Source: a bacterium
GTDB taxonomy: Bacteria > 4484-113 > JAGGVC01
Length of the DNA: 64,000 nt
Reading direction: 5' to 3'
Assembly (NCBI GenBank): GCA_039961635.1
Contig: JABRWB010000041.1
Location: forward strand, 1,448 to 65,447
Position numbers and translations under genes: made by a program. The notes under the pieces were generated by a model. It did not search any database. It was not told the origin of the DNA and saw only the letters and a program-made list of their open reading frames with translations. Positions 21,050 through 54,808 of the stretch are shown here, piece by piece (the stretch's first letter is position 1; every line of letters starts with the position of its first letter).

Positions 21050-21087
21050 GAATGGAATGCTTTAATTGTGAGCCTGCCGGGGAAAGT

Positions 21088-21158
21088 AGCCCTAACGGGA
21101 CTCGAACCCGTGTTTTAGCCTTGAGAGGGCTACGTCCTAACCACTAGACGATAGGGCC
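21088..21158 (-). tRNA. tRNA-Glu, anticodon CUC.
   Basis: Reverse complement GGCCCTATCGTCTAGTGGTTAGGACGTAGCCCTCTCAAGGCTAAAACACGGGTTCGAGTCCCGTTAGGGCT. Cloverleaf with a 7-bp acceptor stem (one G-U pair), a TAGCC/GGCTA anticodon stem with loop CTCTCAA, and a GGTTCGAGTCC T-arm. CCA is not encoded. Confidence 0.8.
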
Positions 21159-24571: not shown

Positions 24572-26815
24572 CTACTTAAAGTAGTGGCATTCCCGGCAGG
24601 ATTTATCCGGATAATGCGCCTCGTCCTTGTCGGCATGGCACATTTGGCAGTTTTGCCTCGGCACCTCCCGCCAGGCGTGGTTTGCGTGGCAGGTCATACA
24701 GCTTTGATGACCATCGCGAACGTGCAGCCCCTTGGATGTCATATCCGCATGGCAAGACGCGCAGCTTTCGGGATCCGCCTTCCACTCGTGTGTCGCATGG
24801 CACATTGCACAGTTGTTTTTGATGCTCTCCTCGTTTGCCTGAAGCTTGTCCGCGTGGCACATCGTGCAAGATGGCATTTCAGTCTTGCTGAATGAGTGGG
24901 CTGCGTGGCACATCGTGCACGTCGTCATTTTCGATTTCAAGTTGGTTTCCGCAATGTCCGCATGACAAGTCGCACAGGCTACTTCCGGCTTGGGCGTCCA
25001 GTTGTGGTCAGCATGGCAGAAAGAGCAGGATACATGCGGCCCGGAGGAAGTTTCATCCGCTTTATCCGCATGGCAGCTAGCGCAATCCAGCGTCCGAGTC
25101 CAGGTATGAGGGATGTGGCACAGCGCGCAGTTTGCTTTGAATTGACCTGAAGAGGCGTTGCCGTTATCCACCTGCGATGGATGGCAGGTCTTGCAGGCTC
25201 CCGGCGGTTCGGGAGACCAGTTGTGCCCCGCGTGGCACATTGCACACTCGGGCATTCCAGCCGTGGCAGTGTCGGTTCCGATGTCTGCGTGGCAGGACAG
25301 ACACAAAATAGGCTCGGGTTTCCACAGGTGATCGGAATGACAAAGCGCGCAATCCGCCTTTACGTTGTTCAGCGACGCCAGACCGGAATCGCGCACGTCA
25401 GGATGACATTGGCCGCAGAACTTGCTGTTCCGGAGAGTGTGAACCGCGGCCATCTGGAATTCGTTCAGCTTCAGAGCTTTGTCGGCCTTTTGCTTCGCTA
25501 CTTCCGCTTCGGAGATTTCTAAGATTTGAGCAAGTTCCGCGTCCGTTGCCGCGGGAAGATTGGGCTTCCAGGTGTGTGGATTGTGGCAGAGGCTGCAATC
25601 CGCTTTGGCGGGCAGTTCTTTGGAATTGGCGACCGGGCTGTGATGGCAAGCGGCGCAAGACTGCCAGCCCTTGAAGCTGCCTTCGTGGGTGTTGTGGCAA
25701 ATGGCGCAGTTTTGCATTTTGCCTTTGAGCACTTCCTTGACAACTGGAGCATGGCAGCTGCGGCAAGTTGAGGATCCTCTGGGCGCTTTCCACGTGTGGT
25801 TCTGGTGGCATGACAAACATTGCTTATGTTTGGAAGGAATGCTGGAAGCGGGCACCGCGCCCGGATAAATGGCTCTTGAGTGGCATTCGAGGCATTTGGA
25901 TGGAGCTGCAACCTTCCAGTCGGAAATCGCGTGGCAGCTAAGGCAATCTTTGTGCTTCGCCGGTGCCGATGCGGGAGCGAAACGCTCCTTCCAGCCCGGT
26001 TCGTGGCAGCTTGCACAAGTACCGGTTTTGAAATTGCCCAGATAATGTGGGCTATGACATTGGATGCAGTTCTTGGGGTGGAATGGGAAGTTGTGTTCAA
26101 GCACTTCCGTTGTTTGGGTATGGCACTGCGTGCAAAACTCGGCGTTTCCGACGTTGGTCCAGGAATGGGGCTTGTGGCACTGAACGCAGGATTGATGTCC
26201 CGGATTGGAAGTCTGGCCCGGCTTATAAACCGCATGGCAGTTCAGGCAGGTAGAAGACGTAATCTCGTAACTTTCGTCGTGTGGATTGTGGCAACTCTTG
26301 CAGGATATTGCCATCGCAGCATCGGGGGAAAAGAAATCCTTGTTAATTTCAGTCTGCAGTGGTTCGGCGTGGCATATCTGGCAGTCGTTGAATTCGGGAA
26401 CAAGCTCCATTCCCGTTTTTTGGACTTTGAAAACGTGACAAGCCCAACAATGGTTTTTTGCCTGTTCGCTGGTGAAATGGCCTTCAGCGTGGCATTCGAG
26501 GCATTTTTTGGGATCGGGCAGCTCCAGGAAGTTGTCGGTGTTGTGGCACGTTGCGCATTCCATCCGCTCTTTGAGTACGTGGGAGCCGTGGCCGGGCGTG
26601 TTGGGAAGGGATTTCCACAGGTCTGCGGAAATTCCGGCAGGAGGTGTTTCGGAAAATTCGGAGACGGGCACTTTGGCGGCGTTGTGCTTGTCCTGACCGC
26701 CACACGTGGTCAATATCAAGATAGCCGGCAGAAGAAAAAAAAGACGCAAATCTGCGCTCGATTTGAGCGAGATTTGCGACCAAAAACGAAGCTTGGTTGG
26801 CGACGGCAGGGTCAT
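24572..26815 (-). CDS. Multiheme cytochrome c with 33 CxxCH motifs (747 aa), signal peptide or lipoprotein.
   Basis: 33 CxxCH motifs counted by eye, CATCH first and CRECH last. Spacing is regular at 10-22 aa. A 55-aa helical linker follows heme 17. The C-terminal half has an alternating 12/14-aa repeat CxxCHADHNW...CxxCHAD. Confidence 0.9.
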   Translation of the reverse strand: MTLPSPTKLRFWSQISLKSSADLRLFFLLPAILILTTCGGQDKHNAAKVPVSEFSETPPAGISADLWKSLPNTPGHGSHVLKERMECATCHNTDNFLELPDPKKCLECHAEGHFTSEQAKNHCWACHVFKVQKTGMELVPEFNDCQICHAEPLQTEINKDFFSPDAAMAISCKSCHNPHDESYEITSSTCLNCHAVYKPGQTSNPGHQSCVQCHKPHSWTNVGNAEFCTQCHTQTTEVLEHNFPFHPKNCIQCHSPHYLGNFKTGTCASCHEPGWKERFAPASAPAKHKDCLSCHAISDWKVAAPSKCLECHSRAIYPGAVPASSIPSKHKQCLSCHQNHTWKAPRGSSTCRSCHAPVVKEVLKGKMQNCAICHNTHEGSFKGWQSCAACHHSPVANSKELPAKADCSLCHNPHTWKPNLPAATDAELAQILEISEAEVAKQKADKALKLNEFQMAAVHTLRNSKFCGQCHPDVRDSGLASLNNVKADCALCHSDHLWKPEPILCLSCHADIGTDTATAGMPECAMCHAGHNWSPEPPGACKTCHPSQVDNGNASSGQFKANCALCHIPHTWTRTLDCASCHADKADETSSGPHVSCSFCHADHNWTPKPEVACATCHADIAETNLKSKMTTCTMCHAAHSFSKTEMPSCTMCHADKLQANEESIKNNCAMCHATHEWKADPESCASCHADMTSKGLHVRDGHQSCMTCHANHAWREVPRQNCQMCHADKDEAHYPDKSCRECHYFK

Positions 26816-26867: not shown

Positions 26868-28151
26868 CTACCGGTTTCCCAAAACCACCTTCGTATAGTA
26901 CAGCATCAGCAGGCCGTAAGCAAACACCAAAGCCCCCAAAATCAAAACTGTGCGCTTGGCCTGTCTGCCCCGCGAAATCAGTTTCGTGGTGAAAGACTTG
27001 ATTTCCATGTAAATGGATTCGGCCTCTTTGTGGTTGTCGGAAATGAGCTTTCCATCGACTGAATGCTGGAGGCCGCGCGCCGTAAGCAGTTTCGTGGTTA
27101 TTTCTTCCACCTTTGGAAGCATATCGGTCATACTTAAATGCGTAGTTTTTTCCGTTTCTTCAACTAGTGTAAGACACTCCTCGTGAAGCTCGTTTAGTCC
27201 GGCAAGCGATGTTTTTATCGTGTTAATCGTTGCGTACGCCGCGCTTTTGGTGTCGTGGCACGATAAACATCCGCCTTTTTCGGTTGATGTTATGAACTCG
27301 TCGGTAGGTTTTTTAAGCTTGTGATTATCGTGGCAAGTTATGCAGCGAGGAAAGCTCATAGCTTTGAAGGCTTCATTGTGAGGCCCTTGCGCGTAATATT
27401 GCTCGGTTCGAAGATGGCAAGAGCCGCATACATTCACGACAGAATCTACTCCCGGAGGCGCAGCGCCGTGATAGCCGTGGCAGGAAGTGCATACCGGTGC
27501 GGCTGTTTCCTTCTCCTTGAAAAGCAGTTCGCCATGCCGGCCGGCCATGTAATCGCTCACTATATCGGCGTCTATTCCATAGGCGGACATTAGCGATTTA
27601 TCTGCATGGCATTTGCCGCAGGTTGCAGGGATGTTTTCGTGATGCGTGGATGACTGCGGATTTGACGCTGGAGCAATTAAGTGCGGCGAATGGCAGTCCG
27701 AGCAGAATGCAACATTCATGTCGCCGTTTTCAAAAAAGCGCTTGCCGTGAATACTCGTTTTGTAAAGTTCAAGCTGATCGGTGCGCATATTTCCGAACTG
27801 CTTCATGTATTCCGGGTTTGCATGGCATTTCGTGCAGGTATCAAGTATCTGGCCGCCGGTCGGCTTGCCGACGAAACCAATTGCAGGATCCATCGCGACC
27901 GCCACGTCTCCTGAAGTTGGATCGCCTCCATGACAATCAACGCAACCCAGTCCCTTATCCCAGTGCGTGCTTTTTTTGAAATCCTGAACCAATTTCAGAT
28001 ATTTGCCTCCCATTTTTTCGTGGCAGGCGATACAACTATCCGAGCGTTTCCCTACAACCTCTTGAGCCAAGGCGGGTTTGGTCAAGAATAACAATAAAAG
28101 AGCAGTTATCGGCAAAAAAACCTCGCGAAATGCGATTCTAGGAGTTTTCAC
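26868..28151 (-). CDS. Nonaheme cytochrome c with N-terminal signal peptide and C-terminal TM anchor.
   Basis: 9 CxxCH motifs (CIACH...CLSCH), a coiled segment, then TVLILGALVFAYGLLMLYYTKVV. Confidence 0.9.
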   Translation of the reverse strand: MKTPRIAFREVFLPITALLLLFLTKPALAQEVVGKRSDSCIACHEKMGGKYLKLVQDFKKSTHWDKGLGCVDCHGGDPTSGDVAVAMDPAIGFVGKPTGGQILDTCTKCHANPEYMKQFGNMRTDQLELYKTSIHGKRFFENGDMNVAFCSDCHSPHLIAPASNPQSSTHHENIPATCGKCHADKSLMSAYGIDADIVSDYMAGRHGELLFKEKETAAPVCTSCHGYHGAAPPGVDSVVNVCGSCHLRTEQYYAQGPHNEAFKAMSFPRCITCHDNHKLKKPTDEFITSTEKGGCLSCHDTKSAAYATINTIKTSLAGLNELHEECLTLVEETEKTTHLSMTDMLPKVEEITTKLLTARGLQHSVDGKLISDNHKEAESIYMEIKSFTTKLISRGRQAKRTVLILGALVFAYGLLMLYYTKVVLGNR

Positions 28152-28582
28152 GAATAATACCCCCAGATTGTGAAAGTGATATAGAAAATCACAAATGCCA
28201 AGCCGGCGAGTGAAACCAGCGGCCTTTTGATGGGGTGCTGTGCATCTGCCGGAGTGCGATCAAGCCACGGCAGTAAAGCAACCGCCAGGAAAAACAGGCC
28301 GGAGATAATGATCGTAAACGGCTTGTTGAAATCTTGAATGCCGGCGAAGTCTTTTGGAACCACTTTTAATAGTTGATAAACCGCCAGAAAATACCACTCA
28401 GGCTTTATGTGGGTTGGAGTCGTGAAAGGGTCTGCGGGAGGTTCGAGCCCTTTTACGTATAAGCCGCACAAAATTACAATCAGGCCTAGGCAAAAAATCG
28501 CCACCGCCATTTCGGTTAAAAGGTGCGTCGGCCAAAACCTTGGCCCAACGACTTTTTCTCCTGGACGCGGATGGTAAACCAC
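28148..28582 (-). CDS. Cytochrome bc-complex subunit IV (PetD-like; equivalent to the C-terminal part of cytochrome b).
   Basis: PFTTPTHIKPEWYFLAVYQLLKVVPKDFAGI is the subunit IV / cyt b C-terminal signature. 3 TM helices. Confidence 0.75.
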   Translation of the reverse strand: MVYHPRPGEKVVGPRFWPTHLLTEMAVAIFCLGLIVILCGLYVKGLEPPADPFTTPTHIKPEWYFLAVYQLLKVVPKDFAGIQDFNKPFTIIISGLFFLAVALLPWLDRTPADAQHPIKRPLVSLAGLAFVIFYITFTIWGYYS

Positions 28583-28591
28583 GATGACCTC

Positions 28592-29287
28592 CTAAAGCGG
28601 GCCTGAAATGCCCTGGCGCCTGATCATAAGGAAATGACCAAGCATAAAAACAAGCGTCCCCAAAGGAAGAAAGACAACGTGCAACATGAAAAACCTGGTT
28701 AAAGTGTCGCCGGATACCGTGGCTCCGCCCCTTAAAAGCACTATAAGAAGGTTTCCAAGCGCAGGCGGGGGCACGGCCTTAGCCAAATCGGTGCCGACAG
28801 TAGTCGCCCAGTAGGCAATTTGATCCCAAGGAAGCAGGTATCCCGTGAAACCGAATAAGAGTCCGATTAAGAGCAATACCACCCCACTGACCCAAGTCAT
28901 CTCTCGCGGTGCTTTGTAGCTTCCTGTAAAGAAAACCCGCGCCATATGGAGGAAGAGAAACACAATGAACAAGTTCGCGCACCAATGGTGGACGCTTCTG
29001 ACAAACCAGCCGAAGCTGACCTCGGTAGCGATGAATCTAACCGAGTTATATGCCTCTGAAACTGTTGGCTTATAGTAAAGAAGCAAAAGAATTCCGCTTA
29101 CAAGCTGGATGCCGAACATCAAAAAGGTCAAGCCGCCAAGGCAGTACATCCAGTTTGTTGCGTGCAATGGGACGATCTGGTTGGCTTGCGCGCGCCACCA
29201 TTCCCGCCATTCGAACCGTTCCTCGAACCAGTCGCCTACCCGCCAACTCCAAGGCCTTTCAGATTTGCTTTGAGGAGATGCGCTCAT
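28592..29287 (-). CDS. Cytochrome b6-type subunit (short cytochrome b N-terminal domain).
   Basis: WMYCLGGLTFLMFGIQLVSGILLLLYYKP...VRSVHHWCANLFIVFLFLHMARVFFTGSYKAPREMTWVSGVVLLL...LPWDQIAYWA. The His ligands for hemes bL and bH are present. Confidence 0.85.
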   Translation of the reverse strand: MSASPQSKSERPWSWRVGDWFEERFEWREWWRAQANQIVPLHATNWMYCLGGLTFLMFGIQLVSGILLLLYYKPTVSEAYNSVRFIATEVSFGWFVRSVHHWCANLFIVFLFLHMARVFFTGSYKAPREMTWVSGVVLLLIGLLFGFTGYLLPWDQIAYWATTVGTDLAKAVPPPALGNLLIVLLRGGATVSGDTLTRFFMLHVVFLPLGTLVFMLGHFLMIRRQGISGPL

Positions 29288-29748
29288 GACACCTCCGCCC
29301 CAACGAAGATTTTTCCTTCCCGTATTACCACTTTGTATTGCTTAAGATCCCTGGGTGAGGGGCCGGCGATCAACTTGCCGTCGAACGTGAACCGTGCGCC
29401 GTGGCAGGGACAATCAAGTTCATTGCTTGCAACGTCGACCATGCAGCCAAGGTGAGGACATTTTTTTTCTAGTGCTTTTAACGCTCCATCGGCAAGGAAT
29501 ACGATAATCGGGACGCCATCAGATCCCATTACAGTTTTGGGAGAACCGTCGCCCACCGACCCCTCGGGGCCCACCTCGATCAGTTCGTTTTTCTCCGACG
29601 TTCGTTTGGGTGGAATAAGGATGTTGAGTAAGGGGAAGCAAATGATGAATGCAAGGCCGAGGAAAGAGCTCCCAAGAAGCCATTCGACAGCCTTGCGACG
29701 AGCCTCATTGGACTCGTCAGCATGCCCTGGTTCGAATTCCTTTACCAC
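29284..29748 (-). CDS. Rieske [2Fe-2S] iron-sulfur protein (possible Tat substrate).
   Basis: CPHLGCMVDV...CPCHGARF are the Rieske boxes. N-terminal EARRKAV followed by a TM helix. Confidence 0.85.
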   Translation of the reverse strand: MVKEFEPGHADESNEARRKAVEWLLGSSFLGLAFIICFPLLNILIPPKRTSEKNELIEVGPEGSVGDGSPKTVMGSDGVPIIVFLADGALKALEKKCPHLGCMVDVASNELDCPCHGARFTFDGKLIAGPSPRDLKQYKVVIREGKIFVGAEVS

Positions 29749-29820
29749 TATTAACCTCCGAATCGGGGAAACACAGAGCCATAAAAATGCTAGTGGTGTT
29801 TTCTCAACTTGTCAACAGTT

Positions 29821-41669: not shown

Positions 41670-41714
41670 CGGTTGCAATTTCAGCCCGCAAAGGAACCCT
41701 TCGGCAAGGGGAAA

Positions 41715-43961
41715 ATGGTATTAAAACAAGATATAAGCCGCGCGCGTGCTTTTGCGTCCGTTGCGCGAATAACCAAGGCGGTCTTGGCAATCGTCACTAT
41801 TGCCGCGGTTATTGGCGGCGTCAATCTGATTTTCTACAATTCTGAACGCGAAATAAACGCCATTGTCAACAGGCCACGCCAGGCGAAATACAGCATCGCG
41901 CTAAACGAGAACCGGGCTACGGGTATAAACGATCGCGGGGAAATCGTCTGGGAAATCGAGAGTGAAAAAGTGACCGTTTCCGCACGCGAAGACCAGTATG
42001 AATTTCATAAGGCTACCGCCCGGTTTTTTGACAGCCAGGGTCCGAACCTGTATATCGAAGTCGAGAAAATCGTGTACGACGAGCCTTCCCAGGATCTTCA
42101 TCTTCTTGGCGGAGTGCACCTTTTAACCAGAGATGAAATGGCCGTCTCAACCGAGGAAGTCCACTGGCGGCACTATTCCAATCAATTCATCTTTCCGAAG
42201 CAGGTCGAACTTCGTACAAAGGAAGGAAATTTGGTTTCCGCAGATTACATGCACGGGGATAAAAACCTTCGCCAGCTTTTCTTCGTGGGTCATTGCCAGA
42301 TTAAAATCATTGAACTCAAAGACACAAAATTCATTAGCGACCGCGAGCTTACGAAAACACAGCTCAAGCTCCAGGACTTCAAAAACATCTTCATTTCGGC
42401 AGACAAGGTCTATTACGACAAGGAGCTCGAGGTTACTGTCGCTGTAAGTTCGTTTTCCGACAAACAGTATAATGTGACCGATCCCCGGACAGGAATGCCG
42501 GTTGAAATCGACTACGGCGACGAGCCGCCCGGTCAGATTTATTTTCGGAAGGGAGAAATCGAGCTGGTCGCCAATCACGTGGAAGTCCATCAAAAGGACT
42601 CCTGGGCGAAATGCTACGGCAACGTGCAAATGAGGATCAATCCAGCGGAGATTAAGCCAAACGACGCTCCCGCCCTGCGTTCGATGAAAAAGCGTACGAC
42701 CCTGATTACCGCCAACGACATAGAATACTTTTGGGATTCGGACTACGCGCGCACGTACGGCAGAAGCGTTGTCATGCAAGACGATCGCAGGGCCGGCGCC
42801 TGGGGAGTCACCTATTACGGCAAGTTCCAGGATGACGAAACCGGCCAATTGCGCAAGGTTGTGTGGCTGGATGACGAGATTTTTATTTTTCAAGGCAGCG
42901 GAGAGTGGCTTAAGGAAGACGAGGTTCTAAAAGATTTTAAAAATCCGGATGTCGAGAAGATGTTATTTGAGGCGGTCAAAGTCACCGGCGATAAAGCCGT
43001 GTTGTTTCTTGATTCGGCGGATATTTACGGAGCCGGAAACGTCCGCGTGAGGCAAAAAGATAAAATCGCGACTTGCGACGAGATGCTGTTTGACGACAAG
43101 AAAAAGAAATTCACATGTCAAGGACACGTCCTGTACGTCAACAAGAAGGATGAAAGTTTTACGGGCGAGCAGATCATCTTTTTCTCGGATTCTGACGACA
43201 TCGAGGTAAACGGCAAAGCCGACGCTTCGATAAGAATCCCGCCGAAGTACACGAAAAAATTTGACGAAGTTAAGCGCAGTCTGGCGGAACGCGGTGCAAA
43301 AAACACATCCGACGAAGAGGCCGTCGCGATTGCCGAAGCGGAGCGGGCCAAGTGGCGCGAGGAGAACAAGCCCTGGGAATTTCTGCCCGGATGGATTGAC
43401 GACGTGCTGCTGCCGGGATTTGGCAAAGGAAGCCGTCCCTTATTTCCAGAAGCCCCGGCTGAAGCGTTTTCGGCGGACGGATTTGATTGGATGCAGAGAT
43501 TGTCGGGCGACGAGGTAGGAATTACACCGTGGAAAAAGGACGGCGCGGCGCCGGGCCAACCCGGATTTGGCCGTTCCGGTGATGCCGAGGTTCTTCCCGA
43601 AGGCATTCCCTTGGCTCCGCCGCAAGTTTCGGGACTTTCGGGGCGAGATGCGGTCAGCGAAAAGAGGCGCGAACTCGGATTGGAAGATCCAAGAGAGGTT
43701 CCGGGGCGATTGCCGCTCTCCCCTCCGACCGGAGGCGAGTTCATTCCCCCTCCAATAAAGGAATCTGGCGAAAAAAGTGCAGACGGACCACTGGAGCTTT
43801 TTTTCAAACTCCAGGACGATATGAATTCAAGGCACGACAACTCATCAGGAGACTCAGGTAAATCGGGCGAATCCAACGACATTCCAGCCGACAGCGGTAA
43901 CAAAAGAGATCCGGGCGATGCGATTGTCATCGAACCGCGCAAGGATGTGGATGACAAATGA
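41715..43961 (+). CDS. Giant LptC-like protein: N-terminal TM anchor, multiple OstA/LptC-like beta-jellyroll repeats, and a Pro/Gly/Glu-rich disordered tail (about 750 aa).
   Basis: TM segment AVLAIVTIAAVIGGVNLIFY, then alternating-hydrophobic beta patterns typical of LptC/LptA (GGVHLLTRDEMAVSTEEVHW...). Start placed at ATG 41715 with a GGGGAAA SD. The six-frame track's TTG start (41673) was rejected. Confidence 0.55.
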   Translation: MVLKQDISRARAFASVARITKAVLAIVTIAAVIGGVNLIFYNSEREINAIVNRPRQAKYSIALNENRATGINDRGEIVWEIESEKVTVSAREDQYEFHKATARFFDSQGPNLYIEVEKIVYDEPSQDLHLLGGVHLLTRDEMAVSTEEVHWRHYSNQFIFPKQVELRTKEGNLVSADYMHGDKNLRQLFFVGHCQIKIIELKDTKFISDRELTKTQLKLQDFKNIFISADKVYYDKELEVTVAVSSFSDKQYNVTDPRTGMPVEIDYGDEPPGQIYFRKGEIELVANHVEVHQKDSWAKCYGNVQMRINPAEIKPNDAPALRSMKKRTTLITANDIEYFWDSDYARTYGRSVVMQDDRRAGAWGVTYYGKFQDDETGQLRKVVWLDDEIFIFQGSGEWLKEDEVLKDFKNPDVEKMLFEAVKVTGDKAVLFLDSADIYGAGNVRVRQKDKIATCDEMLFDDKKKKFTCQGHVLYVNKKDESFTGEQIIFFSDSDDIEVNGKADASIRIPPKYTKKFDEVKRSLAERGAKNTSDEEAVAIAEAERAKWREENKPWEFLPGWIDDVLLPGFGKGSRPLFPEAPAEAFSADGFDWMQRLSGDEVGITPWKKDGAAPGQPGFGRSGDAEVLPEGIPLAPPQVSGLSGRDAVSEKRRELGLEDPREVPGRLPLSPPTGGEFIPPPIKESGEKSADGPLELFFKLQDDMNSRHDNSSGDSGKSGESNDIPADSGNKRDPGDAIVIEPRKDVDDK

Positions 43962-45352
43962 AGTCTGTCAGTTTGTCGGCTTCAAAATTGATTGCTTGTT
44001 TGGTGTTACTTTTATTCGCATTGCAGTTTGCGCTTGGCACGCGGGCGTTGGCCCAAGAAAGTGGCGCGGATTCCACTGAGTACGGCGAATCAGAACCGGA
44101 GCAGGGCAAGTACACGCGGCGCGGATTTGTCCGGATGTTTATCCCCAATGGGCGGATTACCGGCAATACAACCGACAAGCTTTATCATGTGGAAGGCGGC
44201 CTTGAAGTTTATTACTTCGATGTCAAGATTACGGCGGACGAGGCGGATATTGACCAAAACACCGAAACTGCCACGCTTTCCGGAAATGTTTTTTTCGAGG
44301 ATCCGGAATATCGAATCACTTGCAACAAGCTTTTTGTGGATTACAAAAACAACTGGATGAGCGCGGAAGGATTCGTGCAGTTCAACCGGTACAACGAAGG
44401 CAAGGCCAAAGTCGTTGAAACTCTGTCCAAGCGCAACCGTTTGATTACAGTGTTGAAAAACAAAACAACCAAAGTTTATTGTGGCAAGCTCAATTACAAT
44501 TGGGATACTGAAGACTTTTCGGCAGAAGGCGAAGTCAAGGTTGTACAGGAAGGTCTGACAATAGAAGCTTCCGAAATGAGCTACGAAAAGGCAACCGGCA
44601 ATTACTCGTTGTCTGGAGATGTCGTCTTGGTAATGGACAACTACGACTGGCTTTACCAGGCAAAGGTGGTAGCGCAGGAAGATGCGGACTTGGTCAAATC
44701 CCTAACCAAACGCAAGACGACGATCAAGTGCGAAAGCATGCTTGTGAACGACGAAAATGGCAACGTGCGCTGTCTTAAGGGGACCGGAGAGGACCGCGTG
44801 ACTGTGGATCAGGGCGATAAAAGGCTTGAATGCGACGATTTGGCGGTTGACGATGCAAAGAAAACAATGACAACCAAGGGCAATGTCAAATACTGGCAAA
44901 AGGACGGCAACTGGCTCGTCGAAGGCGGCCTTATTAAACGGGAAGAAGCGGAGAAGGAACTTCTTGACGAAATACAGGAACCGATGACAATCCTAGCCGA
45001 AACCATGCTTTTTGATTATGACAAGCGTAAGATGGAAGGCCTGGCGGGAGATGGTGAAACAATCAAAATCGAAGGCCGAAAGGGCAGGGGAGCCCAATCG
45101 AAGAAAATGACCTTCGACGACAAGGAAAAGCTTCTTGAAATGTCCGGCGGCGTGATTATTAATTCCGGCGAGGAATTTCTTTATTGCGATTCATTGTCGG
45201 CTGATACAGACAACAAGGTATATATTTTCAGCGGGGACGTGGACGGATTTTTCATGTATCAGAACCGCGAAAAGAAGGGCGAAGCCGAAGAAATCGCGCC
45301 AGCGGATTCGGGCAACGCTAATGGAAGTCAATCCCGCGAGTCGACGCGGTAA
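43958..45352 (+). CDS. Extended LptA/OstA-like periplasmic protein (464 aa, signal peptide), translationally coupled to the LptC-like gene.
   Basis: Signal peptide. OstA_N-like pattern LSGNVFFEDPEYRITCNKLFVDYKNNWMSAEGFVQF repeated several times. ATGA overlap with the upstream stop. Confidence 0.55.
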   Translation: MKSVSLSASKLIACLVLLLFALQFALGTRALAQESGADSTEYGESEPEQGKYTRRGFVRMFIPNGRITGNTTDKLYHVEGGLEVYYFDVKITADEADIDQNTETATLSGNVFFEDPEYRITCNKLFVDYKNNWMSAEGFVQFNRYNEGKAKVVETLSKRNRLITVLKNKTTKVYCGKLNYNWDTEDFSAEGEVKVVQEGLTIEASEMSYEKATGNYSLSGDVVLVMDNYDWLYQAKVVAQEDADLVKSLTKRKTTIKCESMLVNDENGNVRCLKGTGEDRVTVDQGDKRLECDDLAVDDAKKTMTTKGNVKYWQKDGNWLVEGGLIKREEAEKELLDEIQEPMTILAETMLFDYDKRKMEGLAGDGETIKIEGRKGRGAQSKKMTFDDKEKLLEMSGGVIINSGEEFLYCDSLSADTDNKVYIFSGDVDGFFMYQNREKKGEAEEIAPADSGNANGSQSRESTR

Positions 45353-47509: not shown

Positions 47510-50500
47510 TCAGGTTACTTCGACTGCCACACCGGGAGTAAGAAAAACCAACTTGGCCGAATCCACCGGCCCCAATCCTGCTTCAACCGCCTTGATGTAG
47601 ACCCACATTTGGAGGAAGTAATTCTCGGCTCTTCCATTTACTTCTGCCATGTCAACCGCGTCCGTTTTCCAGTCAACCAAAATTCTGCGTCGGTCGCATT
47701 CAAAAATCAAGTCCACCGCGCCTTGAGCCACCACGAAATCATCGTCATTAAGCATTACAATTGAGGGGCTGATTGCGGATGATTGCGGCATGTTTGGATT
47801 TGCCAGTGCCGTTAGGGCTCTTAATGCTCTTGGTTCTGATGCGAAGTCCTCTCTATTTAACCTTAACAAAAATCTCCATTCTGTTCTTGCAAATCCTTTC
47901 CCGCTTAAAAAACGCCCAAGCGGCGTTTCCAGAAAAGAATGAATCCGATTCATTTCTATATTGCTTGCATCTGATTCGGCGATTTTGCCCAGAGAAACGA
48001 GCTCCGCAAGAGTTTCTTCCGGATTTATACCGACACCACAACCGAATGGCAAATTGGACATGAGAATGTGAACCGCCGAGCCGAGTCGAAGCGAGTCATT
48101 GCGCAGATTGTGTGAATTTCGCGAGGCATCCCTCGGTTCGAACGATTCGGCGATCATTCGCAAACCTTCCGGATCGTCGTATTTGGATAGGGACGATGCG
48201 CTTATCTTTCGCGGAATGCTTATCGTTGAAGAAAATGGATACTTAAAGAGCACGGCATCGGGAATCTTCAGTTCCGCTTCATTCAACGGAGTTACATCCA
48301 TGCCAAGTTCGGTTTTAAGAGCAAGGTTGGGAAGTGTCTCTTTTCCGATTGCAGCCTTCAGCTCGGATTCCCGGAACACATCGCAGCTCAAATCCGCATC
48401 CAAGCCTTGCGGCGCAATCCCACCAATTTGAACGCCGATTGATTCCAGGGCCGCGTAAACAGGTTTTGCCTCAATAAAAATGGGCATTAGCCAATCCATA
48501 AAGTTGCAGGCTTCGTCCCGTTCCCTTATACATTCGTTTTTGGCGGTCCTCCTCGCTGCATAGCTTACCTTGAAGGCGGATTCGCGTACCGAACCGACCA
48601 TTATCAGCCGTTCTCTTGCGCGCGTTAGGGAAACGTAAAGTTTTCTAGCCTCCTCCTCAAGCATTTTGTGGCGCAGCGCCCGTTCGACAATGCGGTAAGG
48701 AGGAGATGGATAGGTAGCGTGGCGGTTGGGGTGAAGTAACCTGCAACCAAAACCAATTTCACGATCGAAAATTACGGCTCTTTTCGATTCATCGAATCTG
48801 AATTTATGTCCCAAACCGGCTGCGATCACTATCGGAAACTCAAGCCCCTTCGCTTGATGAATGCTTGTGATTTGAACTCGGTCTCCGACCGCCGATGTGG
48901 GAAGTTCGATTTTGTCTTCCGCCGACGCTTTTTTAATCAAATCTCCGAGTCCTCCCGGCGGCATGGATTCCGAAATTCCGGCGAACCATTCCAGTCTGGA
49001 GCTTGAATCCGCTGTCCCGTAACCGAGCCGGGCAAGGCTGTCCAGATTAGAATCGCGTATAGTTTTCAGCACCACTTCAGACAACTCATCCGACTGGGCA
49101 GTTTGGCGCATTTCAGTAAGCCATTCCAGGAAACGCTCAATTTTCAATCGCTCTTCAGTTGCGAATCGCATAAGCTCCTCTGATGGAGCACTTTCGCCCA
49201 AGGCCTCTGAAAGAACTGTCAGAACTTGATTATAACCCTTGCTGGTGACCGAAGACACAACTGCATCGAACAGCAGCTCGCAATGTTCCATTGAGCTTCT
49301 GATGGCAAGAAGGTAGTCAGGCGTTAGGCCGACCAAAGGACCGAGCAAAACCGCAGAAAGCGGAATATCCTGCAACGGATTGTCAATAACGCGCAATATG
49401 CTTAACAGATCCCTAGACAATGGATCGGACATAAGTTGCGCGCTACCTCCTGCTGAAAACCAGAACGGAATTCCGTAACGGCCGAACACCTCCGCATATG
49501 TATCCACCCAATTGACCGGTGCGGACAAAATAAGGGCTACGTGCCTGAACGATATCGGGACAGGCCTTTTCTGCCCATCATTTTCTTCGATTACTTTAAT
49601 TGCAGGCACCGAATTAACCAACGATAAAATTTCCCTGGCGACAAGTGATGCCTCCAGCTCTTTGCGGGATAAGTCGGTTTCTTCAAAGTCGCCGCCCGCA
49701 TTTTCCGTATCAAAATCATCGTTTTCAACCTCTTTGTCGTCTACGCGAGTTCCCGATGACAAAATAAGCTTCAACGATACGTGCGGAGTTACGCATCCGG
49801 ATGCGCACTGGCTCAATTCATTTCCAGCGCCACTTATAAGCTTGTGTCCATCGCAATAGTCAATCCCGCCGAAATTCTCGGAAAAAATCCGTGAAAAAAC
49901 AGCGTTTACCACGTCTATTACGGGTTTGACGCTTCTGAAATTATCGGGCAGGTCGATTAAACTGGACGATTCATCTTTGCCCTTTCGGATAAGGTTCAAT
50001 CGGTTAACAAATAAATCCGGCTCGGCATGCCTGAAGCGATAAATGCTTTGCTTTACATCGCCAACCATAAAAAACATTTTCGCGCGTTGCGACAGGCATT
50101 CGAAAATCGCATCTTGAATAGGGCTGGTGTCCTGATATTCGTCAATAAGAATATGATCGAATCTGTCGGCCAAAACTTCGGCCACATGCTTGTTGCTTGC
50201 CGCTGTTTCGGCTAATAAAGTATGTGCGTATCTTTCCAGGTCGGAAAAATCCAGCATTTTCAAGCGTAGTTTGATTTTCGAAAAGCACTCCGTGTACTTG
50301 TAAACCAAATCTATTAATTCGGGCAATATCTGCGAGGACGAAAACTTTTTCAATTCAGAAAGTATGATAAGCTCCGGAACCAGCCACGTTTTTCTAAAAT
50401 CGGACTTTATCCTGTTTCTAAATTTCACCCAAGACTCCTTAGTTCGATCCAGCTCGTAAATGTTACACTTCGCAGGATAGCGGGGAGTCCAGCTTGCGCC

Positions 50501-51325
50501 CGAAAGAAAGTCATTCATTGCGCCGGTTTTTTCCGTATCCATTGACAGAAATTCAGACAGCAGCTTTACATCGTTGTAAATTGCCTCGCGCCATGCTGCC
50601 GGTATCGCCGACTTTCTGAATTCCGTTTCGAACCATTCAAGTTCGCGCCTGATTTTCTCTATTTCCGCTGTTAAAGCATCTTTGTAAAGCTTACCCCAAG
50701 TCGTGTGCCAAAAACTTTCCGCTGACTTTACTTCATCGTAGAGGCCAAGCCAATATTTGCTTCTGGCTCTCGGCTGGGGCAGTTTTTCGAAAAAATCCGC
50801 CAAATCAAGCACCAAAGTATGCAGCCATTCATCGCCCCTGCCTGTGCCGAATGACCTCAACAACTGCGCATAGCGCTTTTGTCCAGCTTTGCTACTGGCC
50901 ATTTCGGCGATTGTCTTGCCAATAGCGATTTCTTTTAAATTGCGTGACTTATCCTCATCTAGAATTGCAAAGTCCGCGGGAAGAGACAACGGTCCTGCGA
51001 ATTCCCGTATAAGCTGCAAACAAAAAGAATGTATCGTACCAACAGGCGCTTGGGTGATTCTAGGGATCAAAAGCTCCAAATTGCGATCGTTCGATTCAAC
51101 GAGCCTGTTTATTACGCCAATCTTGAGTTGAGACGCTGCTTTTCTGGTGAAAGTAATTGCCAGAATCCGCTCCGGTGCGTTTCCTTCAATTAGCAGTTTT
51201 AAATATCGCTGAATAAGAACGCTAGTTTTTCCCGCTCCAGCAGCAGCGCTTACAAGTATCCGGCGATCGACGGCCTCGATCGCTTTGCGCTGACTCATTG
51301 TCCAGTTCACCGGGCCATTTTTCAT
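47510..51325 (-). CDS. addA: AddA/RecB-type helicase-nuclease (UvrD-like helicase plus C-terminal PD-(D/E)xK nuclease).
   Basis: ILVSAAAGAGKTSVLIQRYLKLL (Walker A)...DEYQDTSPIQ...VDLIFECDRRRILVDWKTD (nuclease motif). Confidence 0.85.
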   Translation of the reverse strand: MKNGPVNWTMSQRKAIEAVDRRILVSAAAGAGKTSVLIQRYLKLLIEGNAPERILAITFTRKAASQLKIGVINRLVESNDRNLELLIPRITQAPVGTIHSFCLQLIREFAGPLSLPADFAILDEDKSRNLKEIAIGKTIAEMASSKAGQKRYAQLLRSFGTGRGDEWLHTLVLDLADFFEKLPQPRARSKYWLGLYDEVKSAESFWHTTWGKLYKDALTAEIEKIRRELEWFETEFRKSAIPAAWREAIYNDVKLLSEFLSMDTEKTGAMNDFLSGASWTPRYPAKCNIYELDRTKESWVKFRNRIKSDFRKTWLVPELIILSELKKFSSSQILPELIDLVYKYTECFSKIKLRLKMLDFSDLERYAHTLLAETAASNKHVAEVLADRFDHILIDEYQDTSPIQDAIFECLSQRAKMFFMVGDVKQSIYRFRHAEPDLFVNRLNLIRKGKDESSSLIDLPDNFRSVKPVIDVVNAVFSRIFSENFGGIDYCDGHKLISGAGNELSQCASGCVTPHVSLKLILSSGTRVDDKEVENDDFDTENAGGDFEETDLSRKELEASLVAREILSLVNSVPAIKVIEENDGQKRPVPISFRHVALILSAPVNWVDTYAEVFGRYGIPFWFSAGGSAQLMSDPLSRDLLSILRVIDNPLQDIPLSAVLLGPLVGLTPDYLLAIRSSMEHCELLFDAVVSSVTSKGYNQVLTVLSEALGESAPSEELMRFATEERLKIERFLEWLTEMRQTAQSDELSEVVLKTIRDSNLDSLARLGYGTADSSSRLEWFAGISESMPPGGLGDLIKKASAEDKIELPTSAVGDRVQITSIHQAKGLEFPIVIAAGLGHKFRFDESKRAVIFDREIGFGCRLLHPNRHATYPSPPYRIVERALRHKMLEEEARKLYVSLTRARERLIMVGSVRESAFKVSYAARRTAKNECIRERDEACNFMDWLMPIFIEAKPVYAALESIGVQIGGIAPQGLDADLSCDVFRESELKAAIGKETLPNLALKTELGMDVTPLNEAELKIPDAVLFKYPFSSTISIPRKISASSLSKYDDPEGLRMIAESFEPRDASRNSHNLRNDSLRLGSAVHILMSNLPFGCGVGINPEETLAELVSLGKIAESDASNIEMNRIHSFLETPLGRFLSGKGFARTEWRFLLRLNREDFASEPRALRALTALANPNMPQSSAISPSIVMLNDDDFVVAQGAVDLIFECDRRRILVDWKTDAVDMAEVNGRAENYFLQMWVYIKAVEAGLGPVDSAKLVFLTPGVAVEVT

Positions 51326-54300
51326 TGGACTCCCTCCAATTCCCGCTTCATAAGGGAGATAACTGATTCTTTATCGCCCGCTTTCCCAGCTAATCTCACA
51401 ATGTCGTGTGAAGGATTCATCCTGCACACGGAAGCATAGTTGCAATAATCGCAAAGACAGTAATTGCCCACTTTTACGGGCGCGACCGCGATTCGACCTT
51501 CCGCTATCTCGGACAGGATTCTGCGCAAATATGCGGTGAACCAGTCGAATAAAGTTTTCCAGTCGCCCGCCCCTATCACGTCTATTTTATTTTGATATCC
51601 GAATCCTCCATTTTTATTAAAGTATATTGAATAGTATTTTGACCAGCCTGTTGCAGACTTATCCAATAACCTTGCCGCATGTTCGCTTATTAGGCCGCGC
51701 GATTTACGCATTATTCCCTTATCTTCTCCAGCATCTTCGAACGTTGGCCGCGAATAAATATCGGGCGAAATGTGAAACCACAGCAACGCGCCTACTTTTG
51801 GCCGCGGCGGGTTATCGGCTACGCCAATTGCTTGAACAATGTTCCCGGCCAACATTTCAAGTGCATACCCATAAAATAAAAGCTGTATATCCAGGCCGTG
51901 AAACAACTTATCCCACGAAATTTTTTTTAGGCCGCTTTTATAATCCACGACTGCAAGGCATCCGCTGTTGGCCTCCAAGTCAATTCTATCAATCCTTCCA
52001 GAAACCAAAAACCGAACATCGTCCACTTCAATTTTTACTTGTGGAAGCGCCCCTTCTTGATTACCAAGCCATTGTTCTGCAAGCAGTGGGTCGAAAAGGC
52101 CCGCATTCAGCGTTTGAAGAATTATAAGGAAAGTTTTTTTGACATCACGTTTGATTTGATCTTGAAGAAGCTTGAATGCCGGAATCCTGCTCCAGTCGCA
52201 AGATGCATCATTAAGGACATAAGTTGCGGCTTCATCCATCAGTGCAAGCAATGCAGATTGGTCGCCACCCCTCCAACAAAGCTTGCGAGTAAGTGATTCT
52301 GTAAGGGTTTTCTCCAGAATTGCGTGATATATTGCGCCTAGGGATAGCGAGTCCGGCCGCCCCTCGGGCCTGTTAAACAACCTTAGGTCGGCCTCGGCGA
52401 AGTAAGCAAACGGGCAAGCTGAATACTTTTCCAATCTGGTTGGCGATATCCGATTGCAGTATTTGACTCGGAGAGCGGTTCCCCATTTATGAAGTTTTGC
52501 CGCGGCAGGAGGAGCCTGCAAATTCAATGTTTCGGCCAATCTCACTTCGCCATTTGAAGGAACCAGTAATTCCCTCTGCATGCCTTTGGATTGAAGATAA
52601 GATGCGAACTCAATAGGTGTTACGGCTTCGCTTAAATTGCGGGGCGTTTCGGGCACGTCGTTTTCCTCGATTCTTCCGGCAGCCCAATCGGGAAGCATCG
52701 AAAGCAACGGAGAAGGAACAGCTTCAGAGGATTCCCTTATTGGAATAGTCACGGTCAAGCTATTTGAAGCGCGAGTGCATGCAACGTAAAACAAATATCT
52801 TTCCATAATAAACCTGCTGACGCCGTCTCCTTCCAGCGGAAATCCCTGTTGCCGCAAATATAATTTTTCCTCTTGCGTGATTAATCCGCCATCCCCGCCT
52901 TTGAGTGGAAATCGTTCGTCAATAAGTCCAAGAAGGAAAACATGTTTTGGAGATTCCTGGCGGCCGCGCTCGATTTCAGAGACAATTACTTCATCCAGTG
53001 CGGGCGGCGGAATTTTTGCTTTTGCATCCGATACGGCAGCTTCAAATAGTTCACTGAACATTCTAACTGACATTTTTTCGTCACCGCACAAAACGCCTAT
53101 TTCATGCAGCGTCCTTACGGCCAAGTTATAAGCTTCAAGCTCAATAATATCTCCGCGCACGCGCTCTTCGATTCCGGGGAACAGCATTTTTACTATTCCC
53201 TGCATCTCATATTCAAATTCAGGCGCAGTTAGGGGACGAGTGATTCTAGAACCATATTCGCCTAGTGAAATCAGAAAGGCAGCCAAATGAGTTTCATGCG
53301 CCGGCTCAAATTCGCCAACAAGCTTAACTGAATGCTCGCATATTCCTTCGTTTGGCACAGCAAAACGAAGCAAAAGATTTTCAAGTCTGTCTGTGGATTC
53401 GAGCGGCACACCGGAATGCGGATTTCGCAGAAGCGACAACATGCTGCGCCTGTCGGGTTCAACCGCAAAATCGAGAAGATCTGAAAACAACCTAAGAGCA
53501 GGTCTGACGGCCAGCGGCCGCGGGCAGTCCAGAAAAAAGGGTATGTCGTATTTGGGAAAGCAATCCGAAATCAATCTTCGATACGGCTCAAGAGACCTGG
53601 ACACGACGGAAATATCTTTGTACCTTACACCCGAGCAAACAAGCCGCCTAATTTCCCTGGCGACAAACCTGATTTCGGCAGATGATGTCGGGACGGCTAC
53701 AAGCCGGAAATCCCTGATTTGCGAGCCTGGCAGCTTCTGTCTGGGCAGGTTATTTGGGGACTTCCTTCCTTGTCTAATGCCGATTTCAAGCGCGTTAAGT
53801 TCGGGTGCTTCGGCGAATCTCCATGTCTTCCGCTCAAGATTAAGGTATTCTCGCTCGATCTTAAACGCCGATGCCATCGAATCCAGAGCAAAGTACGTGG
53901 CCAATGGATATCCCAGTGGCGATGTATCAATTCGATCCCTGGGATTATCTTTATTCTTCCCGCTCGGCGATAGATCGGACGGATTCATAAGAAGAGCAAT
54001 TGTCGTTTGCCTGGAGCCTTGAACAAGCGCACGAATAACGCTTAGTTCGCCCGCCGTAAACCTACTGAAGCCGTCAATCCATAGGCGAAGTGTCCGTTTC
54101 GACAGAAGTTTGGGAATATCACCAGCCAAAATCTCCAATCCCGCGGTGTCATCAACAAGGTTGCGGGATTCCAGTTCCGAATTCAATTTTGCCGCGAGAT
54201 AACTGATGTAATTTATTTTGGAGTGCAACCAAGGTCTTTGGGATGCATCTGCCGCCTCGGCAAGCATTTCCAAAGGAAATCCGCATCTTTTGCATTCCGA

Positions 54301-54678
54301 AATCAAATCCAGAATTTGATCCATTTGCCCGGTACCTGCGGTACCGGTGCTCGCCAAAAACGGGGGCATTTGTTCATCGGCAAGAATCCTGAAAAGCAAC
54401 AACCGCTTAATATTAGGATCGGCGAGTTCTTGTTTAGGCTCGTAGCCAAGAACACGCGGGAGCATTTTGAAACCGGTTATGGCCAAATCGCTGATGACGG
54501 GAGATTTCGATTTTGAAAGGAGCAGCCGCTCGTACTGCGCGGTGGCTTGATCGGGAACCAGCAAAATCATAAGTGATTCCCGGTCCGCACGGTTTGCCGC
54601 GATATCCAATATATCCCGCGCGATTTCGTGCGTTTTCCCGCTGCCTGCAGGTCCTATGATGAATTTTAGTTTAGCCAT
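51322..54678 (-). CDS. addB: AddB-type helicase-nuclease subunit with a C-terminal Fe-S-cluster nuclease domain.
   Basis: MAKLKFIIGPAGSGKTHEIA...C-terminal CLCDYCNYASVCR cysteine cluster. 4-nt overlap with addA. Confidence 0.8.
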   Translation of the reverse strand: MAKLKFIIGPAGSGKTHEIARDILDIAANRADRESLMILLVPDQATAQYERLLLSKSKSPVISDLAITGFKMLPRVLGYEPKQELADPNIKRLLLFRILADEQMPPFLASTGTAGTGQMDQILDLISECKRCGFPLEMLAEAADASQRPWLHSKINYISYLAAKLNSELESRNLVDDTAGLEILAGDIPKLLSKRTLRLWIDGFSRFTAGELSVIRALVQGSRQTTIALLMNPSDLSPSGKNKDNPRDRIDTSPLGYPLATYFALDSMASAFKIEREYLNLERKTWRFAEAPELNALEIGIRQGRKSPNNLPRQKLPGSQIRDFRLVAVPTSSAEIRFVAREIRRLVCSGVRYKDISVVSRSLEPYRRLISDCFPKYDIPFFLDCPRPLAVRPALRLFSDLLDFAVEPDRRSMLSLLRNPHSGVPLESTDRLENLLLRFAVPNEGICEHSVKLVGEFEPAHETHLAAFLISLGEYGSRITRPLTAPEFEYEMQGIVKMLFPGIEERVRGDIIELEAYNLAVRTLHEIGVLCGDEKMSVRMFSELFEAAVSDAKAKIPPPALDEVIVSEIERGRQESPKHVFLLGLIDERFPLKGGDGGLITQEEKLYLRQQGFPLEGDGVSRFIMERYLFYVACTRASNSLTVTIPIRESSEAVPSPLLSMLPDWAAGRIEENDVPETPRNLSEAVTPIEFASYLQSKGMQRELLVPSNGEVRLAETLNLQAPPAAAKLHKWGTALRVKYCNRISPTRLEKYSACPFAYFAEADLRLFNRPEGRPDSLSLGAIYHAILEKTLTESLTRKLCWRGGDQSALLALMDEAATYVLNDASCDWSRIPAFKLLQDQIKRDVKKTFLIILQTLNAGLFDPLLAEQWLGNQEGALPQVKIEVDDVRFLVSGRIDRIDLEANSGCLAVVDYKSGLKKISWDKLFHGLDIQLLFYGYALEMLAGNIVQAIGVADNPPRPKVGALLWFHISPDIYSRPTFEDAGEDKGIMRKSRGLISEHAARLLDKSATGWSKYYSIYFNKNGGFGYQNKIDVIGAGDWKTLFDWFTAYLRRILSEIAEGRIAVAPVKVGNYCLCDYCNYASVCRMNPSHDIVRLAGKAGDKESVISLMKRELEGVQ

Positions 54679-54808
54679 ATTTATGCCGCTTCGTTGCCGC
54701 GGAATAAGGATTATACAAGCCCCGGTCGGGTACAATCTGCACGTGCCGGCAATCAACGATTCAGGGAAACCTCCGGGCAGCTTTCCGCCGCCTTCCCGGT
54801 TTCACAAA

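Follow-up and report, generated by a model that had tools for sequence, protein, structure and literature searches.

A 33-heme cytochrome c encoded with a Rieske/cytochrome b6-type complex in an uncultured bacterium, and its possible role as a long-range electron conduit

The 64,000-nucleotide stretch of DNA analyzed here (referred to as the window; positions 1,448 to 65,447 of contig JABRWB010000041.1, GenBank assembly GCA_039961635.1, GTDB lineage 4484-113; JAGGVC01) carries, at 24572..26815 on the minus strand, an open reading frame (ORF) with an ATG start, the product of which (747 amino acid residues, aa) contains 33 CxxCH motifs. A row of five genes in the same orientation, each overlapping the next or at most 52 nucleotides (nt) from it, ends with this ORF, and the other four encode a Rieske protein, a cytochrome b6-type protein, subunit IV, and a nonaheme cytochrome c. 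We consider, with slightly better than even confidence, that the 33-heme protein functions as a lipid-anchored, periplasm-spanning conduit, fed by the Rieske/cytochrome b6 complex via the membrane-anchored nonaheme subunit. What was established directly is how the gene is built, that its motifs are conserved, that it is linked to the operon (with one exception) and rare, and the fold similarity of one modeled segment.

Motif count, integrity, and di-heme repeat of the 33-heme protein

A sequence-only reading of the window had counted 33 CxxCH motifs, from CATCH to CRECH, and a recount by regular expression returned exactly this number, with the first at residue 87 and the last at residue 740. 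Sixty-six of the 67 Cys residues were within these motifs and the other was Cys38 of a lipobox; CxxxCH, CxxxxCH, and CxxCK motifs were all absent from the 747-aa protein. Shuffled controls with the same residues (n = 20,000) contained 0.48 CxxCH on average and 5 at most. Since PF14522 (Cytochrome_C7; 94.1 bits vs. a cutoff of 24.8) and PF14537 (Cytochrom_c3_2; 68.9 vs. 25) matched above their Pfam gathering cutoffs, the protein is a class III-like multiheme c-type cytochrome; the computed mass is ~77.8 kDa for the mature apoprotein and ~98 kDa for the holoprotein before lipid is added. No match at E≤0.01 was obtained with PF09699/TIGR01905 (Paired_CXXCH_1, a 41-aa doubled-CxxCH model), which does match the nonaheme neighbor and is among the precomputed hits of many distant homologs. 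No curated family names the 33-heme protein, every NCBIfam match being far under its cutoff.

A signal peptide with a possible lipobox (ILTTCGG) had also been noted, in agreement with a hydrophobic segment at residues 20-39 and the sequence LTT-C38-GG. Cys38 and Gly39 were invariant across the orthologs, the lipoboxes of which were LPSC, LPAC, LSGC, and LNSC; that of the window was less canonical, with Thr at position -1 vs. Ser, Ala, or Gly in the orthologs. From the signal peptide and the invariant Cys, the protein is predicted to be a lipidated bacterial lipoprotein. A terminator-like hairpin with a T-run was found inside the region coding for the signal peptide (26744-26757, minus strand); such hairpins did not exceed in the region the frequency of those in shuffled sequence, and its occurrence is probably due to chance.

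The gene is divided as follows from the N- to the C-terminus (basis in parentheses).

26702..26815, minus strand: signal peptide and predicted lipobox, residues 1-38 (hydropathy; invariance of C38/G39)
26558..26701, minus strand: heme-free N-terminal tether/head, residues 39-86 (alignment; conserved W67, K68, and G75-H76...H79)
25583..26557, minus strand: hemes 1-17, consisting of heme 1 and eight di-heme units, residues 87-411 (motif and unit analysis)
25418..25582, minus strand: 55-aa heme-free linker, predicted to be helical, residues 412-466 (length of 55-56 aa in all orthologs; AlphaFold2, AF2)
24575..25417, minus strand: hemes 18-33, consisting of eight di-heme units, residues 467-747 (motif and unit analysis)

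When the protein was cut at every second heme and the units were compared pairwise, it resolved into heme 1 and 16 di-heme units, with the linker separating the first eight units from the last eight. The units were 35-45 aa long, except for the 25-aa C-terminal unit and the linker-bearing unit 16, and shared a common plan: an A heme (CxxCH, in many units with AD after it) with 12-22 aa, and a B heme (CxxCH-x-x-H-x-W) with 10-13 aa, the latter having a second His three residues past the proximal His and usually the Trp as well. The di-heme repeat proposed earlier was therefore real, and its recurring unit was found as the strings CxxCHADHNWTPKP and CxxCHAGHNWSPEP, but the repeat was not confined to the C-terminal half, as had been thought, and ran through the whole protein. 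The inter-heme spacers were 10-22 aa, as reported, with the sole exception of the 55 aa between hemes 17 and 18, a linker whose length was confirmed and whose helical character was supported by AF2 (predicted local distance difference test, pLDDT, of 86-95). From heme 18 onward, the spacers were 17, 11, 14, 12, 17, 10, 14, 12, 14, 12, 14, 11, 16, 12, and 12 aa; the alternation of 12 and 14 aa described for this half is exact for hemes 24-29 and approximate elsewhere.

Pairwise unit scores were 57-109 among the C-terminal units and 23-92 among the N-terminal units, the former thus being less diverged. There was no colinear correspondence, unit for unit, between the two halves in the score matrix, and a single duplication of one half is therefore unsupported. 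A local tetraheme super-repeat was found (units 18/20 vs. 22/24), including a 57-nt match (70% identity) at 219-nt spacing; a recent duplication at the DNA level was excluded by the blank result of Tandem Repeats Finder and by the presence of only short, diverged repeats. The repeat also varies in number. P0002 (L091:257-2068), a complete protein of 603 aa with a lipobox and 25 hemes, lacks hemes 19-20 and 25-30, and each deletion is in register, an A heme being joined to a later B heme. Length therefore varies by whole blocks of di-heme repeats that keep the register, in a manner that would be expected from, and suggests, unequal recombination between units.

The protein is repetitive, and the gene might be explained by a collapse or expansion of repeats, or as a decaying relic; a frameshift or assembly collapse had been named at the outset as what would overturn the finding. 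At L096:2288-4573 (JAANMU010004325.1, a strain of the species of locus L005, described below), the proximal His of heme 7 is replaced by Tyr (CMQCY), leaving 32 intact motifs; this could be a sequencing error or a polymorphism. In the window itself the frame is intact, and the identical 747-aa product was called on six contigs from separate sequencing runs. The direct repeats in the gene were short matches over CxxCH codons, none longer than the 57-nt match above, and Tandem Repeats Finder found nothing in the gene DNA. Furthermore, three orthologs with 43-50% identity retained their length, 33 of 33 motifs, the 55-56-aa linker, and the lipobox Cys. Since an identical protein was found on six contigs and no long DNA repeats were present, the probability of an artifact or pseudogene is negligible: the gene is real, intact, and evolutionarily maintained.

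The Rieske/cytochrome b operon and its distribution

The 33-heme gene is preceded by the following features, in the order of transcription.

29787..29815, minus strand: promoter-like TTGACA-17-TAGCAT, ~40 nt upstream of the Rieske start (consensus match only)
29284..29748, minus strand: Rieske [2Fe-2S] protein, 154 aa, one N-terminal transmembrane (TM) helix (PF00355, E = 1.6e-13; CPHLGC...CPCHGARF)
28592..29287, minus strand: cytochrome b6-type protein, 231 aa, four TM helices, YCLGG (PF00033, E = 2.4e-58)
28148..28582, minus strand: subunit IV, 144 aa, three TM helices, PEWY Qo motif (KPEWYFL) (PF00032, E = 3.6e-16)
26868..28151, minus strand: nonaheme cytochrome c, 427 aa (motif count; hydropathy)

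The cluster motifs of the Rieske protein, the four-helix cytochrome b with two His pairs, the split subunit IV with PEWY, and the CxGG motif, the Cys of which is the heme cn/ci-binding Cys of b6f-type complexes, identify the predicted products as a Rieske/cytochrome b6-type complex. Matches to the NCBIfam models were under the cutoffs for the b6f-type Rieske protein, cytochrome b6 (280 bits; cutoff of 325), and ExtP (NF040969; 258.8 bits; cutoff of 290). The start of the cytochrome b gene overlaps the stop of the Rieske gene by 4 nt. The promoter-like site is, at weak confidence, a possible promoter of the operon, the count of such sites not being above that in shuffles.

The nonaheme subunit stands in the position of cytochrome c1/f, and consists of a Sec signal, nine CxxCH motifs, a helical stalk of ~95 aa, and a C-terminal TM anchor (residues 398-425). 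This protein has 1415 relatives at E≤1e-10, among which those named include Acidobacteriota and Zixibacteria, and nine of nine motifs were invariant in a cross-phylum alignment of 36 sequences. In a class of Rieske/cytochrome b complexes that is still uncharacterized, this protein seems to be the usual c-type subunit; it has no solved structure and no curated family name. In other phyla, its gene directly follows that of cytochrome b, and the next gene encodes a monoheme cytochrome c (L100); at L101, no further cytochrome follows, and the complex I genes come next. Since the nonaheme gene is followed elsewhere by a monoheme cytochrome c or by nothing of the kind, the 33-heme gene fills the slot of the soluble electron acceptor.

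The 33-heme protein, in contrast to the nonaheme protein, is rare: the search of 1.84 billion representative proteins yielded only three full-length orthologs and 54 sequences scoring below 1e-30, and the protein is known from about five lineages. The three orthologs mentioned above, with 43-50% identity and 33 motifs, were P0001 (L004), the product of L005:12464-14695, and P0121 (L090). When the 80 closest cytochrome b loci from 185,579 species genomes were examined, the 33-heme gene was found in L005 only; the two nearest genomes by cytochrome b showed 78% and 61% identity, and a scan of metagenomes contributed nothing but further strains of the L005 species. L004 and L005 have the same five-gene order as the window, and at L091, the gene upstream of P0002 ends in the anchor sequence of the nonaheme protein. 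The widespread core of Rieske, cytochrome b, and nonaheme genes has therefore been extended by the 33-heme gene in particular lineages only. An exception to the linkage was found at L090:1-2787 (Logan SRR22388160), in which the 33-heme gene lies between a divergent NAGPA gene upstream (71% identical) and those for QueA and TrmFO downstream, as in the window, but the other four operon genes are missing; the operon linkage is therefore usual (four of the five lineages), and not obligatory.

At the next-closest cytochrome b locus (L006:5660-8735), the nonaheme gene is followed by one for an 11-heme protein. That this is a truncated homolog of the 33-heme protein was excluded by an identity of 23%; by eye, its N-terminal motifs resemble those of NapC/NirT. 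The output module of the Rieske/cytochrome b/nonaheme complex thus seems to be exchangeable. More distant relatives with 27-34 hemes (~27% identity) often possess an N-terminal membrane helix instead of the lipobox, and the motif counts of distant relatives range from 27 to 57. The genes for the 27-34-heme homologs adjoin those for NapC/NirT, a Ni_hydr_CYTB-type cytochrome b, or NrfD together with a Fer4 ferredoxin-like protein, and the pairing of a very long multiheme chain with a quinol-oxidizing entry point is a recurrent theme.

Fold, heme ligation, and the proposed route of electrons

Single-sequence searches against the PDB gave only weak matches: STC/CctA (E of ~1e-3) and a fragment of GSU1996 (E = 0.0096). 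With the family profile, the 16-heme HmcA (1e-22), GSU1996 (1e-19; 1.3e-19 for full-length 3OV0), and MtrA (1e-18) were matched about equally, together with one weak match to 7lq5_A ("Cytochrome c"; E = 1.4e-5). These near-equal values indicate membership in the broad class III-like multiheme group and in no specific family. The full-length AF2 model, built on the 54-sequence alignment, had a pLDDT of 60 and a predicted template modeling score (pTM) of 0.35, and Foldseek of this model against the PDB yielded no meaningful match; within it, the linker was predicted confidently, with helices at residues 425-432, 436-444, and 452-470. Because the full-length model was poor, an alignment of repeat segments was built instead, in which residues 574-721 (hemes 24-31) were aligned with four-unit segments of the protein and its relatives. 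The resulting model (mean pLDDT of 79.7, pTM of 0.61) was superposable on MtrA, suggesting an MtrA-like fold for this segment. By scaling from MtrA (10 hemes per 80 Å), the 17- and 16-heme rods would be ~14 and ~13 nm long, respectively, and the whole protein ~25-28 nm, as an extrapolation.

The mature protein contains 28-29 non-motif His for 33 hemes, and at least four hemes therefore cannot have bis-His ligation. In the wider family, His accounts for 48% of the residues found at position -3 to the first Cys of a B heme. In the window clade, the residue at this position is His before hemes 7, 11, 13, 25, and 31, Met before hemes 15, 21, and 27, and Lys before hemes 17, 19, 23, and 29; the Met and Lys sites correspond to seven distal-ligand positions (residues 367, 404, 486, 521, 560, 630, and 666). 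The four Lys were invariant in every ortholog having the unit, and the three Met exchanged with Lys among orthologs. This pattern is as expected for axial ligands, and suggests candidate His/Lys and His/Met hemes.

Hemes without a distal His might alternatively form the active site(s) of an enzyme, such as a nitrite, hydroxylamine, sulfite, or tetrathionate reductase, with the rest of the chain feeding it. The number of hemes that are not bis-His and the invariance of Lys at four distal positions would accord with such a function, as would the top Foldseek matches, to a multiheme nitrite reductase, although these were weak (E = 1.8). However, the protein has neither a CxxCK motif nor a family-level match to the domains of HAO, NrfA, MccA, or OTR, nor a non-heme catalytic domain, and the non-His sites recur periodically in a uniform repeat and swap between Met and Lys among orthologs, as fits axial ligands. 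We regard a catalytic function as highly improbable.

In the proposed conduit, quinol (menaquinol) would be oxidized at the Qo site containing PEWY, and one electron would pass to the Rieske cluster, predicted to be of low potential, and from there to the nonaheme subunit, held at the membrane by its C-terminal helix. The nonaheme subunit would then reduce the 33-heme protein, in which the 16 di-heme units would be packed in the fashion of MtrA/STC at ~18 residues per heme, forming rods of 17 and 16 hemes with a small helical hinge between them. Such a chain could span a periplasm of the Gram-negative type and connect the complex in the inner membrane with a partner located at, or in, the outer membrane, and its 33 redox centers would buffer charge as well. 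The N-terminal lipid anchor would hold one end; the residue after Cys38 is not Asp, and by the rules of E. coli this would mean sorting to the outer membrane. In this scheme, we infer how the sites are occupied and ligated, that the whole chain is linear and makes contact with the nonaheme subunit, in which membrane it is anchored, which way the electrons flow, and the terminal partner.

Several observations weigh against such a conduit. The genes for the Rieske protein, cytochrome b, subunit IV, and the nonaheme cytochrome are all missing from the L090 locus; neither the window nor the ±10 kb around the orthologs encodes a porin of the outer membrane, a cytochrome of the cell surface, or a terminal reductase; the full-length AF2 model was of low confidence, so that the linearity and length of the whole chain are extrapolations; and the potentials of the cofactors leave the direction of flow uncertain. 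The last point follows from the Rieske motif CPCHGARF, conserved in L004, L005, and L006, in which Ala and Phe occupy the two positions where hydrogen bonding tunes the potential. Ser/Tyr mark high-potential and Gly/Phe low-potential Rieske clusters (PMC3509893), and Ala/Phe thus predict a potential of <+200 mV, as in menaquinol-oxidizing complexes. The bis-His hemes of the MtrA/STC type usually titrate between 0 and -400 mV, and transfer from the Rieske cluster to such hemes would be uphill. Some hemes may have a higher potential owing to the candidate Met/Lys ligands, and the low predicted Rieske potential narrows this gap, but does not close it.

Because of this gap, the opposite direction remains a live rival, in which a low-potential donor outside the cell or in the periplasm (Fe(II), reduced humics, a syntrophic partner, or a periplasmic oxidase has been considered) would reduce the chain, and electrons would flow downhill via the nonaheme subunit to the Rieske cluster, and from there to the quinone. 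Conduits of the MtrA family run in both directions in nature (PMC7198977). Against uptake, the gap itself would be smaller if the conserved Met/Lys sites raise some heme potentials, and no signs of lithotrophy (carbon fixation genes or Cyc2) were found in the window. Moreover, almost every characterized Rieske/cytochrome b complex is a quinol oxidase, and we judge uptake to be quite unlikely.

The lack of a downstream partner gene nearby, in both the window and the ±10 kb around the orthologs, is also consistent with an electron capacitor, storing up to 33 electrons per molecule and buffering the quinone pool when acceptors are intermittent. The heme density (19.1 and 17.6 aa per heme in the N- and C-terminal halves, respectively; 21.5 in the mature chain) and the ability of the gene to stand without an adjacent Rieske/cytochrome b operon agree with this function, and electron storage is one of the two rationales in the literature for very large multiheme cytochromes (PMC11492766). 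A capacitor, which is compatible with either direction of flow and does not exclude a wire, leaves the two-rod-plus-hinge design, the lipid anchor, and the strict conservation of 33 sites and their order unexplained. As the principal function, storage appears to be unlikely.

A fuller version of the conduit proposal, possible but doubtful at present, is that a low-potential Rieske/b6 complex capable of a Q cycle is hard-wired via the nonaheme subunit to the lipid-anchored 33-heme wire across the periplasm, with His/Lys and His/Met hemes at periodic places tuning the potential along it, thereby allowing proton-motive electron exchange with the outer membrane or the extracellular space without soluble shuttles or a quinol dehydrogenase of the CymA, ImcH, or CbcL type.

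Relation to known systems and significance

MtrA from Shewanella (PDB 6R2Q, chain A), STC/CctA, and NrfB are the closest in how the protein would work. MtrA, a wire from the periplasm to the outer membrane, has 10 hemes, all of which are bis-His, whereas the window protein has 33 in one chain and cannot be all bis-His, and is further set apart by its regular di-heme period, the helical hinge at its center, and its predicted lipid anchor; its genetic tie is to a Rieske/cytochrome b complex, and not to a CymA-type quinol dehydrogenase. In contrast to MtrCAB, there is no MtrB-like porin or MtrC-like partner nearby. In the absence of a porin and with not all hemes bis-His, it does not belong to an Mtr-type porin-cytochrome system.

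The sequence-only reading had pointed to GSU1996 from Geobacter sulfurreducens (3OV0) and other polymerized c7-domain cytochromes, and the window protein, predicted to be elongated like GSU1996, does share with it a single chain made of repeated multiheme modules. However, the c7 repeat of PpcA and GSU1996 is a triheme domain with 3 hemes per ~70-80 aa, whereas 16 copies of a di-heme unit of 35-45 aa were found here, with no specific similarity, and the protein therefore does not belong to the GSU1996/c7-polymer family. The interpretation offered in that reading was, as a whole, partly supported. No specific sequence similarity to the filament cytochromes OmcS, OmcE, and OmcZ was found, and the predicted lipid anchor argues against a free filament. 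The "nanowire" cytochromes of Desulfuromonadia, with 27 or more hemes, are of the same kind: many hemes per chain, predicted to be linear, and without experimental characterization (PMC11492766). The window clade differs from the 27-34-heme relatives (~27% identity) in its own layout of 1+16, linker, and 16 hemes, the Lys/Met sites, and the link to Rieske/b6 instead of NapC/NirT, CbcL-like, or NrfD modules, and it belongs to another, uncultured lineage.

Among Rieske/cytochrome b systems, the extKLMNOPQS cluster of Geobacter encodes ExtO (Rieske), ExtP (b6-type), and ExtQ together with 10-, 12-, and 5-heme cytochromes (PMC2825233, PMC5877670). Both loci thus combine a Rieske/split cytochrome b with large multiheme cytochromes, and the ext cluster has been proposed as a quinol-oxidizing entry to export (PMC2825233, PMC5877670), a role of its Rieske/cytochrome b that is itself only a proposal. 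The window lacks genes for a porin (ExtI), rhodanese, and selenoprotein, and encodes 9- and 33-heme cytochromes vs. those with 10, 12, 5, and 4 hemes; with the ExtP model scoring under its cutoff, its cytochrome b is not an ExtP equivalog. In the anammox bacterium Kuenenia, Kuste4569-4574 and Kustd1480-1485 encode a b6-like cytochrome b, subunit IV, and a hexa- or octaheme protein in place of cytochrome f (PMC12954380), a layout similar to that of the window operon. These complexes possess NAD(P) oxidoreductase and HAO-like subunits and a Rieske potential of >+300 mV, whereas the window operon has neither subunit, has a Rieske protein predicted to be of low potential, and includes a 33-heme lipoprotein. 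Beyond Geobacter and anammox, no Rieske/cytochrome b complex with a nonaheme or larger partner was found in the literature.

The 33-heme and nonaheme ORFs are the only two multiheme ORFs in the window, and the rest is housekeeping. Citrate synthase showed 68-77% identity to sequences from many phyla, being too conserved to place the lineage. Proteins of 762 aa with LptC and LptA/LptD_N domains (41673-43961, plus strand) and of 464 aa, LptA-like (43958-45352, plus strand), are encoded in tandem; speculatively, Lpt bridge proteins of such unusual length would suit a wide periplasm, a distance that a 33-heme wire would likewise serve to cross. An AddA/AddB-type helicase-nuclease pair (1271 and 1144 aa; 47510-54756, minus strand) and a single tRNA gene (21087-21158, minus strand) were also found.

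The interest of the protein lies less in its heme count than in its strict di-heme modularity with near-minimal polypeptide per heme, the conserved two-rod-hinge design, the candidate His/Lys and His/Met hemes, and its position at the output of an operon. The density of ~18 residues per heme, the strict two-heme period, and the natural variants differing by two- and six-heme blocks may be of interest for the engineering of protein wires, and the Lys/Met substitutions at the distal sites may exemplify how potentials are tuned along a chain of hemes. Should its function be confined to charge buffering, the protein would be one more very large cytochrome of the kind already catalogued in other phyla. 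Most characterized export chains combine quinol dehydrogenases that do not pump protons (CymA, ImcH, and CbcL) with small diffusing cytochromes. If the conduit proposal is correct, the energy-conserving Q cycle could feed electrons directly into long-range transfer along a wire made of a single continuous polypeptide, and such metabolism would be extended to a poorly known, uncultured lineage.

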